Positions 14,288 through 36,605 of a stretch of 64,000 bases of DNA are shown piece by piece (position 1 is the first letter of the stretch; the number at the start of each line of letters is the position of its first letter). The stretch comes from Escherichia coli (GTDB lineage Bacteria > Pseudomonadota > Gammaproteobacteria > Enterobacterales > Enterobacteriaceae). Location of the stretch: NCBI RefSeq assembly GCF_029227855.1, contig NZ_CP074356.1. One strand, written 5' to 3'. The position numbers and the translations under genes were made by a program. The notes under the pieces are model-generated. The model searched no databases. It worked only from the letters and a program-made list of their open reading frames with translations, and was not told where the DNA came from.

Positions 14288-14745
14288 TTATTTTCCTCGT
14301 CATGTTGCAATGAAAATTTGCGGTGAAAAATGTTAAGGCGGCGGAGTATACCATAAGCTTTGCTAAAAATATCAGTGGTTGTTTTTTGAGCGTGATATCG
14401 GCAGTGCTATAAAATACGTTAATATAATGACCAATAAATATTTTTATCATGAATGTTTTTTGCCCGTATTGTTCGGGTTAATTAATGTTACATATTCAGC
14501 GGGCTGATTTTCATTTTTGCTGAATAAAGTCAATTTTTGTCACATTTCATCGTAGGGCTTACTGTGAAACGATCCCGGAAGCCGTTGGTGACGGGCGTGA
14601 CCATAACTGTGGACAATCGAATTGACAAAAACGAGAGAAAAATCGAATACCCACCATTTTTAACGTTTCAAAGTTGCAATAAAAACCGCTAATATACGAA
14701 TGACTAACTATCAGTAGCGTTATCCCTATTTCTGGAGATATTCCT

Positions 14746-17987: not shown

Positions 17988-18063
<76 letters not shown>

Positions 18064-18117
18064 GTTTAAAAGGCATCGGCGTCAAGCGGATGTCTGGCTG
18101 AAAGGCCTGAAGAATTT

Positions 18118-18191
18118 GGCGCGTTAACAAAGCGGTTATGTAGCGGATTGCAAATCCGTCTAGTCCGGTTCGACTCCGGAACGCGCCTCCA
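18118..18191 (+). tRNA. cysT: tRNA-Cys (GCA)
   Basis: ggcgcgttaacaaagcggttatgtagcggattgcaaatccgtctagtccggttcgactccggaacgcgcctcca. Confidence 0.92.
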
Positions 18192-18203
18192 CTTTCTTCC
18201 CGA

Positions 18204-18290
18204 GCCCGGATGGTGGAATCGGTAGACACAAGGGATTTAAAATCCCTCGGCGTTCGCGCTGTGCGGGTTCAAGTCCCGCTCCGGGTACCA
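18204..18290 (+). tRNA. leuZ: tRNA-Leu (UAA)
   Basis: 87-nt class II tRNA gcccggatggtggaatcggtagacacaagggatttaaaatccc...ccgggtacca with long variable arm. Confidence 0.92.
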
Positions 18291-26562: not shown

Positions 26563-29915
<3,353 letters not shown>

Positions 29916-29921
29916 GTGCGG

Positions 29922-30350
29922 TTAATCTCCCGTAAGTGGAACTAACAGCACATCGACCTCACTTGAGGCAATCACTCTTTTCGCCGAGCAGGATGCTCGC
30001 GAAAAGAAACTGTGATTGTGATTACCGCAAATCACCAAATCGAAATGATATTTGCGACAAACTTCCAGAATATGTTCGCTTAACTCACCGTAGGCAATAA
30101 ACGTCTTGTCAACGGGATACCCCGCATCCTGAATTAACTTATCAAGAAAGCTTTGCGTTTCTTCCTGCATCACGCTGCGTAAATCTTCAAGCATCGGCGC
30201 AGCTAATTGATTGTACATTTCCGGGTCGGACGCGAGAGTAATTAAACTGATGTGTCCCTTTACTGGCCTGGCGATAGATACCGCTTTTGCCAGCAGTTGC
30301 TGACTTTCCGGTGTAACCGCAACGGCGACAAGAATATTGCTATAGCTCAT
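29922..30350 (-). CDS. uspC: Universal stress protein C
   Basis: 142-aa UspA-family ORF convergent with otsA. Confidence 0.85.
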   Translation of the reverse strand: MSYSNILVAVAVTPESQQLLAKAVSIARPVKGHISLITLASDPEMYNQLAAPMLEDLRSVMQEETQSFLDKLIQDAGYPVDKTFIAYGELSEHILEVCRKYHFDLVICGNHNHSFFSRASCSAKRVIASSEVDVLLVPLTGD

Positions 30351-31130
30351 AACCTGTTCCTTATTCTGTGAACTTCAGGTGACATTAAAGCTTTACTCCT
30401 AATGGAGAAACGACGCAATCCCAACTCAGTCAAACAGGTAAATATTAGTCTGATTATTAGTAAAGACAATTAATCAATCACTCTCGGTGATCATATGATT
30501 TCAACTGTAATTATAAGAAAATAATGTACTGATTCTCCATGTTAAACAAGTGGTTAATATATGTAAAACATTTTATTAACATTAAGTTGATTGTTGCCTT
30601 TCTTTGTATTTAATTAGTTTGTTGTGCGGTAAGTATCTGTTTAAAAATAGCTTATCTGGTATTGCATTAAAGCAATTATTTATGGCAGATGATTATTTAC
30701 GGTGAGTTATTTTAACTGTGCGCAACATCCCATTTCGATTATTCCTGTTTCATTTTTGCTTGCTAGAGTCGCGAAAAACTTTTTAACAGATTGAAATACA
30801 CCCAAAACAAAAGTATGACTTATACATTTATGTTAAGTAATTGAGCGTTTTGTGTGATCTGTATCACACATTATTGAAAATCGCAGCCCCCCTCCGTTGT
30901 ATGTGAGTGTAGTGACGAGTAAAGTTGCGTCGATTTAGGAAAAATCTTAGATAAGTGTAAAAAACCCCTTCTATTTGTGAGGACTTATTAAATCCAAAAA
31001 AGGGGCTCTGCCTGTTGCAGCTTATCGCAACTATTCTAATGCTAATTATTTTTTACCGGGGCTTCCCGGCGACATCACGGGGTGCGGTGAGACCGCATAA
31101 AAATAAAGTTGGTTATTCTGGGTGGGAATA
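30351..31130 (+). promoter_or_regulatory. flhD: flhDC master-operon control region and long 5' leader
   Basis: 780-bp AT-rich intergenic region between divergent uspC and flhD; contains the CRP site; no IS element. Confidence 0.7.
30853..30868. promoter_or_regulatory. flhD: CRP binding site of the flhDC class 1 promoter
   Basis: TGTGA-tctgta-TCACA, exact match to the CRP half-sites, about 270 nt upstream of flhD ATG. Confidence 0.75.
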
Positions 31131-31481
31131 ATGCATACCTCCGAGTTGCTGAAACACATTTATGACATCAACTTGTCATATTTACTACTTGCACAGCGTC
31201 TGATTGTTCAGGACAAAGCGTCCGCAATGTTTCGTCTCGGCATAAATGAAGAAATGGCGACAACGTTAGCGGCACTGACTCTTCCGCAAATGGTTAAGCT
31301 GGCAGAAACCAATCAACTGGTTTGTCACTTTCGTTTTGACAGCCACCAGACGATTACTCAGTTGACGCAAGATTCCCGCGTTGACGATCTCCAGCAAATT
31401 CATACCGGCATCATGCTCTCAACACGCTTGCTGAATGATGTTAATCAGCCTGAAGAAGCGCTGCGCAAGAAAAGGGCCTGA
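31131..31481 (+). CDS. flhD: Flagellar master regulator FlhD
   Basis: 116 aa from [17 protein letters not shown]; track ORF starts 3 codons earlier at GTG. Confidence 0.85.
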
Positions 31482-31483
31482 TC

Positions 31484-32062
31484 ATGAGTGAAAAAAGCAT
31501 TGTTCAGGAAGCGCGGGATATTCAGCTGGCAATGGAATTGATCACCCTTGGCGCTCGTTTGCAGATGCTGGAAAGCGAAACACAGTTAAGTCGCGGACGC
31601 CTGATAAAACTCTATAAAGAACTGCGCGGAAGCCCACCGCCGAAAGGCATGCTGCCATTCTCAACCGACTGGTTTATGACCTGGGAACAAAACGTTCATG
31701 CTTCGATGTTCTGTAACGCATGGCAGTTTTTACTGAAAACCGGCTTGTGTAATGGCGTCGATGCGGTGATCAAAGCCTACCGTTTATACCTTGAACAGTG
31801 CCCGCAAGCAGAAGAAGGACCGCTGCTGGCATTAACCCGTGCCTGGACATTGGTGCGGTTTGTTGAAAGTGGATTACTGCAACTTTCCAGCTGCAACTGC
31901 TGCGGCGGCAATTTTATTACCCACGCTCACCAGCCTGTTGGCAGCTTTGCCTGCAGCTTATGTCAGCCGCCATCCCGGGCAGTAAAAAGACGTAAACTTT
32001 CCCAGAATCCTGCCGATATTATCCCACAACTGCTGGATGAACAGAGAGTACAGGCTGTTTAA
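31484..32062 (+). CDS. flhC: Flagellar master regulator FlhC
   Basis: 192-aa ORF with zinc-binding Cys cluster. Confidence 0.9.
31993..32019 (+). promoter_or_regulatory. motA: sigma28 promoter of motA-motB-cheA-cheW, embedded in the 3' end of flhC
   Basis: TAAACTTT-N11-GCCGATAT inside the flhC coding sequence. Confidence 0.65.
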
Positions 32063-32120
32063 CTGATACGGTGTGGCGCAACATTCCAGCAGCGGTAACG
32101 ACGTACCGCTGCTTTTTTTT
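32026..32120 (+). ncRNA. motR: MotR sRNA (motA 5' UTR-derived)
   Basis: Transcript from the sigma28 promoter above to the hairpin agcagcggta-acgacg-taccgctgct plus T8 gives about 95 nt, the reported MotR size; boundaries approximate. Confidence 0.5.
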
Positions 32121-32188
32121 GCCCCAATCGCGCGTTAACGCCTGACGACTGAACATCCTGTCATGGTCAACAGTGGAAGGATGATGTC

Positions 32189-33072
32189 GTGCTTATCTTA
32201 TTAGGTTACCTGGTTGTTCTCGGTACAGTTTTCGGCGGTTATTTGATGACCGGTGGAAGCCTTGGAGCACTCTATCAACCCGCTGAACTGGTGATTATTG
32301 CCGGTGCAGGGATTGGGTCGTTTATCGTCGGCAATAATGGCAAAGCGATTAAAGGCACGCTGAAGGCGCTGCCGTTGCTGTTTCGTCGCTCCAAATATAC
32401 CAAAGCAATGTATATGGATCTGCTGGCTCTGCTTTATCGGTTGATGGCGAAATCGCGGCAGATGGGGATGTTTTCGCTGGAACGTGATATTGAAAATCCC
32501 CGTGAGAGCGAGATCTTCGCCAGCTACCCACGCATCCTTGCGGATAGCGTCATGCTTGATTTTATCGTCGATTATCTGCGTCTGATTATCAGCGGTCACA
32601 TGAACACCTTCGAAATCGAAGCCCTGATGGATGAAGAGATTGAGACGCACGAAAGCGAAGCAGAAGTCCCGGCGAACAGTCTGGCGCTGGTCGGGGACTC
32701 ACTTCCGGCGTTTGGTATTGTCGCGGCTGTGATGGGGGTCGTTCACGCGTTAGGTTCAGCCGATCGTCCTGCCGCCGAGCTGGGGGCGCTTATCGCACAT
32801 GCGATGGTGGGGACTTTCCTCGGTATTTTATTGGCTTACGGATTTATTTCCCCATTAGCGAGTGTTTTACGTCAGAAAAGCGCCGAAACCAGCAAAATGA
32901 TGCAGTGCGTCAAAGTCACACTGCTTTCTAATCTGAACGGTTACGCACCGCCTATCGCCGTTGAGTTTGGTCGCAAAACGCTCTATTCCAGCGAACGTCC
33001 GTCGTTTATTGAACTGGAAGAGCATGTGCGTGCGGTGAAAAATCCGCAACAACAGACGACAACCGAGGAAGC

Positions 33073-33076
<4 letters not shown>
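32189..33076 (+). CDS. motA: Flagellar motor stator protein MotA
   Basis: 295-aa ORF, GTG start, four TM segments. Confidence 0.9.
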
Positions 33077-35968
<2,892 letters not shown>

Positions 35969-35988
35969 ATGAGTAAAAAGGTAACAAT

Positions 35989-36492
35989 ATGACCGGTATG
36001 ACGAATGTAACAAAGCTGGCCAGCGAGCCGTCAGGCCAGGAATTTCTGGTATTTACCCTTGGTGATGAAGAGTACGGTATTGATATCCTGAAAGTGCAGG
36101 AGATCCGTGGCTACGATCAGGTAACACGGATTGCGAACACGCCAGCGTTTATCAAAGGCGTCACGAATCTGCGCGGCGTTATTGTGCCGATTGTCGACTT
36201 ACGAATTAAGTTCAGCCAGGTGGATGTGGACTATAACGACAACACGGTAGTTATCGTCCTGAATCTCGGACAGCGGGTGGTCGGCATCGTGGTTGACGGC
36301 GTTTCAGACGTGCTTTCATTGACGGCGGAGCAAATTCGTCCGGCACCGGAATTTGCCGTGACGCTTTCAACAGAATATCTCACTGGACTGGGCGCACTGG
36401 GCGACCGGATGTTGATTCTGGTGAACATCGAAAAACTGCTGAACAGCGAAGAGATGGCGCTGTTAGATAGCGCGGCGTCAGAAGTGGCGTAA
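35989..36492 (+). CDS. cheW: Chemotaxis coupling protein CheW
   Basis: 167-aa ORF. Confidence 0.9.
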
Positions 36493-36520
36493 TTCTCCTG
36501 ATTTCCTCAATTGAAATGAA

Positions 36521-36549
36521 CCCGATGATCTGCGCATCGGGTTTTTTAT
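36521..36549 (+). terminator. Rho-independent terminator after cheW
   Basis: cccgatg-atctgcg-catcggg followed by TTTTTT. Confidence 0.7.
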
Positions 36550-36578
36550 TTCAATTTCGCGGCGGGTGGCATCAGCAA

Positions 36579-36605
36579 TAAAGTTTCCCCCTTCCTTGCC
36601 GATAA
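36579..36605 (+). promoter_or_regulatory. tar: sigma28 promoter of tar-tap-cheRBYZ
   Basis: TAAAGTTT-N11-GCCGATAA, perfect consensus, about 30 nt upstream of tar ATG. Confidence 0.8.

Follow-up and report, generated by a model that had tools for sequence, protein, structure and literature searches.

How is the motAB-cheAW operon driven by a class 3 promoter when none is visible between flhC and motA, and why does an intrinsic terminator stand in front of its first gene? The window analysed here, a stretch of 64,000 nucleotides of Escherichia coli DNA, holds the enterobacterial flhDC-motAB-cheAW junction, with motB and cheA next after motA, and its genes are laid out as follows:

31481: end of flhD
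31484–32062, + strand: flhC, 192 codons and a stop codon (open reading frame list; named flhC in annotated E. coli genomes)
32121–32188, + strand: the rest of the motA 5′ leader, present in readthrough transcripts only
32189–33076, + strand: motA, GTG start, first gene of motAB-cheAW (open reading frame list and annotation)

The last 70 nt of flhC hold a promoter, and its last 37 nt are at the same time positions +1 to +37 of the small RNA MotR. We put the probability that the locus combines the motA class 3 promoter of E. coli with the motR gene at about 0.95. This arrangement, an intragenic sigma-28 promoter and the MotR sRNA, is already published, and the finding is correct but not new. Of 5426 complete E. 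coli genomes, 5368 carry the region at an identity of at least 95%. Nothing in the sequence of the window is at odds with this explanation.

The promoter consists of two elements within the coding sequence:

31993–32000, + strand: sigma-28 (FliA) −35 element, TAAACTTT, 7 of 8 positions to consensus
32012–32019, + strand: sigma-28 −10 element, GCCGATAT, 7 of 8 positions to consensus, encoding Ala177-Asp178 of FlhC

The preliminary description of this DNA had placed the motif TAAACTTT-N11-GCCGATAT within the last 70 nt of flhC, and it is indeed there, exact to the base, at 31993–32019, starting 70 nt before the end of the gene at 32062. With the two elements 11 nt apart, it matches TAAAGTTT-N11-GCCGATAA at 14 of 16 positions (two mismatches). 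Sites with three or fewer mismatches are commoner in the 64-kb window than by chance, with five observed against 0.62 expected, a count that none of 100 shuffles reached. Among the remaining ones are, going by location and sequence, the tar promoter (36579, which fits the consensus perfectly) and the divergent promoters of fliD and fliC (6313 and 6413). The 126-nt spacer between flhC and motA holds neither a sigma-28-like site at three or fewer mismatches nor a sigma-70-like site on the + strand, on which grounds we rejected a separate motA promoter in the spacer.

That a class 3 promoter nevertheless drives motAB-cheAW, as had been claimed from the sequence, is in line with this empty spacer and with published work on K-12. 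In Fitzgerald et al. (2014; PMC4183435), the sequence TAAACTTTCCCAGAATCCTGCCGATATT is a FliA ChIP-seq site assigned to “(flhC)motAB-cheAW”, with a fold-above-threshold of 101, one of the top values in the portion of the table covered here, and the window is identical to the published motif over all 27 nt. RNA-seq values from the same study fall in a ΔfliA strain from 302 to 1 for motA, while flhC, at 320 in the parent, still stands at 107. By its identity to the K-12 site, the promoter in this strain would be expected to bind FliA and to give a FliA-dependent start. Relative to the intragenic FliA promoter of Fitzgerald et al. (2014) and of bioRxiv 10.1101/188474, the 27-nt motif is the same and the promoter shows no difference; these papers discuss neither the terminator nor the frozen transcribed segment +2 to +19 described below.

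A motif that is also coding could be conserved for the sake of the protein. We therefore compared the flhC loci of 80 species and of 12 more from other Enterobacterales families, 92 altogether, and, because the motif is coding, tested synonymous sites. The end of the best sigma-28 match lies at one and the same distance from the flhC stop, exactly 43 nt upstream, in all of the 80 loci, and the N11 spacing is kept in all except one frameshifted locus. Of the 11 additional loci in which motA follows flhC, 10 likewise carry the promoter (in Rahnella, Yersinia, Dickeya, Xenorhabdus, Photorhabdus, Edwardsiella, Proteus, Providencia and Chimaeribacter), and Moellerella has a degenerate form with four mismatches. 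The synonymous-site set comprised 134 degenerate flhC codons whose amino acid is at least 95% conserved, read in 71 ungapped loci. Thirteen of them use a single codon in all 71 loci, and 12 of these 13 fall within 31982–32044, where they read, in order, GTA AAA. CGT AAA CTT; GCC GAT; CAA CTG CTG GAT. CAG. The background rate of invariant codons is 1 in 120 and codon entropy averages 1.30 bits; the probability that all five promoter codons (CGT AAA CTT and GCC GAT) should be invariant in 71 of 71 loci is 3.9e-6. Two of the frozen codons lie outside the recognised elements:

31982–31990, + strand: GTAAAAAGA, just upstream of the −35 element, with GTA and AAA codons invariant across 71 species

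From this conservation, GTAAAAAGA is possibly an upstream extension of the promoter.

The explanation that the motif is kept merely for the FlhC residues RKL...AD, without being a selected promoter, and that motA is reached by readthrough from flhDC, draws on the fact that the motif is coding and that the R-K-L and A-D residues it encodes are themselves invariant. We consider it highly improbable and rejected protein constraint as the cause of the conservation on several grounds. The promoter codons are frozen synonymously, whereas equally conserved residues elsewhere in the protein use two to six codons, and the residues that flank the motif vary freely. A Sodalis flhDC copy that is not followed by motA has lost the motif (CGT AAG ATT ...), the FlhC variant D178A is fully functional (10.1101/188474), and, in the ΔfliA data cited above, motA RNA all but disappears while flhC RNA persists. 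The codon pattern thus argues that the DNA motif is selected beyond its coding constraint, which matches the published conclusion that the promoter constrains FlhC (10.1101/188474).

Downstream of the promoter, the transcript and its 3′ end are delimited as follows:

32026–32120, + strand: motR, the 95-nt MotR sRNA, which doubles as the initial 95 nt of the motAB-cheAW leader
32088–32113, + strand: terminator hairpin AGCAGCGGUA-ACGACG-UACCGCUGCU, 10 bp
32113–32120, + strand: U8 tract, the tail of the terminator; the T-run is kept across 66 species

The cloning primer SM001 (5′P-ACAACTGCTGGATGAACAGAGAGTAC), which marks the published +1, matches the window in 26 of 26 positions at a single site, 32026, and MotR is therefore 32026–32120, 95 nt. 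RefSeq NC_000913.3 lists an ncRNA of the same length, motR (b4828), at 1977208–1977302. The window agrees with K-12 in 220 of 221 positions over 31980–32200, and in 94 of 95 within motR. The strong hairpin with T8 that had been noticed in the flhC-motA spacer is found at 32088–32113, with the T8 at 32113–32120, and the suggestion that the promoter-to-terminator product fits the size of MotR holds to the nucleotide, with exactly 95 nt from +1 at 32026 to the end of the T8. Compared with K-12 MotR (motR b4828; Melamed et al., 2023, eLife 12:RP87151), locus, strand, promoter, +1, length and terminator are the same, and the sole difference is one base, U instead of A at +49 (32074).

In K-12, MotR was described as deriving from the motA 5′ UTR, with a promoter in the flhC coding sequence that is the motAB-cheAW promoter too (Melamed et al., 2023; PMC10578931). 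The Northern and fliA-dependence checks that the preliminary description called for are thus already carried out in K-12: the RNA appears as a band of ∼95 nt that is enriched by Hfq co-immunoprecipitation and lost in ΔfliA, accompanied by longer bands ascribed to readthrough of the MotR terminator (PMC10578931), and it was detected on Northern blots by a second laboratory (PMC10654059). The prerequisites for MotR, namely the promoter and the hairpin with U8, are intact in the window, and by identity to K-12 a fliA-dependent, Hfq-bound transcript of ∼95 nt would be expected in this strain. A 3′ poly-U of the U8 type is the kind bound by Hfq. An Rfam 15 scan of 29000–36000 at E ≤ 1 gave no match; MotR is without an Rfam family.

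The terminator ranks first among the terminator-like sites in 30300–33200. Its stem has 10 pairs, 6 of them G-C, around a 6-nt loop, and the folding energy of the hairpin is about −22 kcal/mol. In the 66-species alignment 98.1% of the cells are paired, against 19–80% in slid controls; double-sided changes occur in the three pairs nearest the loop (23 cells), a result that none of 500 shuffles matched, while the seven lower pairs of the stem are essentially invariant. The hairpin, in the form CCAGCAGCGG-loop-CCGCUGC-U8, is found in the loci of Enterobacteriaceae and Erwiniaceae and is confined to these two families; Pectobacterium, Brenneria, Dickeya, Serratia, Yersinia, Rahnella, Edwardsiella and Morganellaceae lack it or carry a replacement. 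A bidirectional terminator was rejected by inspection, since no T run follows the hairpin on the reverse strand.

Lying 26 nt past the flhC stop, the hairpin should, from its position, double as the terminator of the flhDC operon. From the ΔfliA values of 107 for flhC and 1 for motA in PMC4183435 it follows that flhDC-initiated readthrough is about 1% or less, and from these values together with the 95-nt RNA we infer that termination occurs at the U tract.

The locus would then work as follows. FliA (sigma-28) RNA polymerase would bind TAAACTTT-N11-GCCGATAT in the 3′ end of flhC and start at the A at 32026. Part of the transcripts would stop at the hairpin and U8 (32120), giving the 95-nt, Hfq-binding MotR, and the remaining ones would pass the terminator into motAB-cheAW. 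MotR would act in trans through a seed at about +43 to +54, pairing inside the coding sequences of rpsJ and fliC and promoting flagella synthesis, and the same hairpin would also end the class 1 transcript of flhDC. What is shown of FliA binding, of the dependence on FliA, of the Hfq-bound 95-nt RNA, of readthrough and of target effects comes from K-12 experiments by others; our own analysis covers anatomy, identity and conservation.

Some of these observations would also fit a simpler explanation, in which the hairpin is just the flhDC terminator and the 95-nt RNA a by-product of attenuation in cis, with no role in trans. Its distance from the flhC stop and the ΔfliA values make it a hairpin that must end flhDC transcripts in any case. 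Pectobacteriaceae, Yersiniaceae, Morganellaceae and Hafniaceae lack the E. coli-type terminator and keep the promoter, and the sRNA is therefore dispensable for the basic motA arrangement. The chromosomal motR-M1 mutant, which has fewer flagella and lower motility (Melamed et al., 2023), carries a change that affects the motA leader in cis as well, and the published phenotype could in part stem from this. We nonetheless judge this explanation improbable. K-12 MotR raises S10 and flagellar gene expression (PMC10578931); the RNA co-immunoprecipitates with Hfq, forms RIL-seq chimeras with rpsJ and fliC and was footprinted in vitro, and MotR overexpressed from a plasmid, that is in trans, has phenotypes that are lost in MotR-M1 (Melamed et al., 2023). 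In addition, GGUGUGG in the seed region is conserved among Enterobacteriaceae beyond the needs of the terminator.

For MotR acting in trans, the single base by which the window departs from K-12 may be of some consequence, since it falls in the seed:

32071–32074, + strand: seed GUG (+46 to +48) changed in MotR-M1, and the polymorphic site +49

The GTG changed in MotR-M1 (primers SM467/468) is present at 32071–32073, and the only difference between window and K-12, at 32074, lies directly 3′ of this GUG. The 61-nt haplotype of K-12 is found exactly in 2948 of 5371 complete E. coli genomes, and that of the window in 586 of 5374, O157:H7 included. Most other genera carry GGUGUGG, and U is therefore probably the ancestral base. 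The best predicted duplex between MotR and rpsJ lies at positions +140 to +152 of the rpsJ coding sequence, in agreement with the published “∼+150”; with A49 it has 12 contiguous pairs and −22.7 kcal/mol, and with U49 a central U·U mismatch and −19.0 kcal/mol, which is 3.7 kcal/mol weaker. The rpsJ segment itself is identical in 5299 of 5425 genomes, including an O157:H7 strain with the MotR haplotype of the window. Because U49 weakens the predicted duplex, the function in trans may differ in strength, and the link between MotR and S10 seen in K-12 may, by this modelling, be weaker or lineage-specific in strains like that of the window. The K-12 allele is the one used in all experiments, whereas the window, O157:H7 and most other genera carry the mismatch allele.

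How sigma-28-initiated transcripts pass the terminator is the remaining part of the question, and here the frozen codons extend further than the promoter. Codons 181–186 of flhC, which are MotR +2 to +19, are synonymously frozen though they lie downstream of it, and they contain one of two complementary segments:

32030–32037, + strand: CUGCUGGA, MotR +5 to +12, candidate anti-terminator strand
32085–32092, + strand: UCCAGCAG, MotR +60 to +67, candidate anti-terminator partner

CUGCUGGA is the exact complement of UCCAGCAG, allowing a helix of 8 bp, and UCCAGCAG spans the lower five pairs of the 5′ arm of the terminator and three flanking bases. The predicted minimum free energy (MFE) fold of the nascent RNA (+1 to +70/76) includes this helix, at −20.4 to −22.3 kcal/mol, and does so in 66 of 66 species although the sequence between the two strands has diverged. 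For the complete 95-mer, the terminator fold (−28.7 kcal/mol) and the anti-terminator fold (−25.5 kcal/mol) differ by 3.2 kcal/mol; over the 66 species the median gap to the terminator fold is −2.7 kcal/mol. Among 576 synonymous recodings, the native codons rank 12th by duplex strength. The helix is 99.4% paired in the 66 species, with six of its eight pairs never varying and none changing on both sides; as both strands are invariant, a covariation test is uninformative. The lower stem of the terminator is invariant while its top covaries, a pattern that fits a three-way constraint. In the motA leader, CAUCC at 32154–32158 is complementary to MotR +10 to +14, and the Shine-Dalgarno sequence GGAAGGA lies within the same leader segment, 32121–32188.

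On the basis of these folds we tentatively propose, as a possibility that we ourselves regard with some doubt, that a conserved cis anti-terminator gates the MotR terminator, with CUGCUGGA pairing with UCCAGCAG before the 3′ arm is made. The terminator would then be leaky for untranslated, sigma-28-initiated RNA, and the ratio of MotR to motAB-cheAW would thereby be set; as a speculative corollary, ribosomes finishing flhC would mask +5 to +12 on the flhDC mRNA, which would leave the terminator tight. If true, this would explain 1) why a terminator with a 10-bp stem and U8 sits between a promoter and its own operon, 2) the six synonymously frozen flhC codons, and 3) the higher abundance of MotR*. 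It would also offer a testable mechanism by which a single terminator keeps class 1 (flhDC) transcription apart from that of class 3 (motAB-cheAW) and yet lets the class 3 promoter through. In the open-access literature searched, we found no existing proposal of a cis anti-terminator for MotR; for the readthrough, Melamed et al. (2023) speculate on S10-NusB anti-termination and propose no RNA switch.

We nevertheless think it probable that readthrough is ordinary leakiness of the terminator, perhaps boosted by S10-NusB, and that something else keeps the frozen 5′ segment conserved. Reasons that can be named for the segment are a second target-pairing region, a 5′-end stability element, or pairing with the motA leader. 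The terminator fold is favoured at equilibrium by about 3 kcal/mol, and the top 5 bp of the terminator, being free, can nucleate and displace the competing helix, whose pairs never vary and so lend it no covariation support. MotR and MotR* both raise motA-operon mRNA in a nusB-dependent manner (Melamed et al., 2023). Furthermore, 13 of 20 terminator-less loci (Pectobacterium, Brenneria, Yersinia, Xenorhabdus and Photorhabdus) keep CUGCUGGA intact, so that some constraint other than pairing with an E. coli-type terminator must act on it, and the MFE folds of terminator-less loci pair CUGCUGGA with a CAUCC/UCCGC element ∼30 nt upstream of motA. It is broken in the other 7 of these 20 loci and in 0 of 66 terminator-bearing ones, a comparison between groups that are clades and not independent samples.

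Ordinary leakiness accounts less readily for the difference between the two kinds of transcript. By the values of PMC4183435, flhDC-initiated readthrough is at the level of about 1% or less given above, yet sigma-28-initiated motA RNA is as high as that of tar. The comparison gene, tar, has no leader terminator. Both strands of the helix are invariant in 66 species where other synonymous sites are saturated. Moreover, MotR*, a derivative found by chance and reported as “more abundant” (Melamed et al., 2023), carries TGC>GAG at +6 to +8, a change predicted to abolish the helix, with a nascent MFE of −11.4 kcal/mol and a gap of 13.4 kcal/mol. The insert of pZE-MotR reaches the motA start (primer SM002), and better termination would therefore raise the 95-nt species.

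For the locus as a whole, the intragenic promoter has been repeatedly predicted and mapped, its constraint on FlhC is published, and MotR is named, annotated and functionally studied. The finding as such brings nothing new to this; it serves as a positive control, in which a real sigma-28 promoter inside a gene, together with its sRNA, was recovered from raw sequence. The anti-terminator proposal and the polymorphic seed are side leads of modest weight that can be tested.

Among known systems, the closest to hand is UhpU, which, like MotR, is an Hfq-binding sRNA made from an intragenic sigma-28 promoter (in uhpT) and ended by an intrinsic terminator (PMC10578931). The uhpU promoter is poorly conserved, whereas that of motR is the best conserved FliA promoter (10.1101/188474). 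UhpU is a 3′ UTR product of its host gene with no operon downstream, in contrast to MotR, which is a 5′ UTR product and whose terminator, unlike that of UhpU, must be read through for motAB-cheAW to be expressed. Terminator/anti-terminator leaders that release a trans-acting small RNA are represented by rnTrpL, from the trp attenuator, and by SreA and SreB, from SAM riboswitches of Listeria. In these, the balance between short and full-length RNA depends on alternative leader helices, a likeness that for MotR is at the level of prediction, its competing helix having 8 bp, lying ∼3 kcal/mol below the terminator fold in strength and being without covariation support. What they share with MotR is that the product of premature termination in a leader acts as an sRNA.

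Synonymous sites are frozen in six flhC codons 3' of the sigma-28 promoter of MotR, corresponding to MotR +2 to +19 (window 32027-32044; 66-71 species). Within these codons lies CUGCUGGA, the complement of 32085-32092 at the base of the 5' arm of the MotR terminator. The two segments may form a cis anti-terminator; the frozen segment also encompasses positions +6 to +8, altered in MotR*, a published chance mutant. Directly 5' of the -35 element, synonymous sites are likewise nearly invariant in GTA AAA AGA (31982-31990), of which GTA and AAA are found in 71/71, and this stretch could represent an A-rich upstream extension of the promoter. A natural control for promoter-driven constraint is provided by the flhDC copy of Sodalis sp. 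C49 (L092:1201-1767), which has no motA downstream and in which the sigma-28 motif is lost (CGT AAG ATT ..., no GCCGAT) while the RRK residues are kept.

Over 221 nt, the only difference from K-12 is at MotR +49 (window 32074), which is U here and A in K-12 and immediately adjoins the seed triplet mutated in the published M1 variant. The position is commonly polymorphic within E. coli: the K-12 haplotype around it has an exact match in 2948 of 5371 genomes and that of the window in 586 of 5374. In most other genera, the base is U. In the predicted 12-bp MotR-rpsJ duplex, U49 produces a central U.U mismatch that changes the energy from -22.7 to -19.0 kcal/mol.

Other sigma-28 sites in the window, with one overlapping RNA, are:

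36579-36605, + strand: sigma-28 promoter with perfect consensus
36512-36589, - strand: Rfam family C0465 RNA (111.6 bits), opposite to and overlapping the promoter at 36579-36605
6313-6339, - strand, and 6413-6439, + strand: divergent sigma-28 promoters with 1 and 2 mismatches, respectively
14395-14421, - strand: sigma-28-like site TAACGTAT-N11-GCCGATAT with 3 mismatches, between sdiA-like and uvrY-like ORFs

The perfect-consensus promoter differs from the K-12 tar promoter by one spacer base. The spacers of the divergent pair also differ from those in K-12. On either side of this pair lie an ORF of 471 aa (4855-6270, -) and one of 500 aa (6495-7997, +), which are, by position, fliD and fliC. 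The antisense FliA site detected in otsA by ChIP-seq in K-12 is present at 28759-28786 (-), but its -10 element has changed from GCCGATAA to GGCGATAA, and it is probably weakened or inactive in this strain. The site at 14395-14421, which the text of the K-12 FliA ChIP-seq study (Fitzgerald 2014, PMC4183435) does not mention, could be a chance match.

The uspC-flhD interval of the window (30351-31130) contains no insertion sequence, in contrast to K-12 MG1655, where IS1H lies between the two genes; AsflhD, an antisense RNA of K-12, would lie at about 30933-31152 (-). Matches to Rfam and from ARAGORN elsewhere in the window are:

49848-50155, + strand: MicL sRNA (365 bits)
8062-8103, - strand: ES036/CssrF, within the region from which FliX arises, directly 3' of the fliC-like ORF
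17988-18290, + strand: tRNA-Gly/Cys/Leu cluster

About 30 nt 5' of the motA start, CAUCC (32154-32158) is complementary to GGAUG at MotR +10 to +14. In whole-leader minimum free energy folds from Pectobacterium, Brenneria, Dickeya, Xenorhabdus and Photorhabdus (flhC loci L073-L079 and L084-L086), the 5' end of the leader pairs with a CAUCC/UCCGC element that is equally far from motA. Such pairing could close the motA leader as a conserved 5'-3' helix. The flhC-motA leaders of Yersinia enterocolitica (L083) and Y. pestis (L093) carry AGCAGCGGUA...ACCG hairpins similar to the stem of the E. coli terminator, but forming part of a longer helix and lacking a U tract. These hairpins may be related to the MotR terminator or represent a precursor of it.
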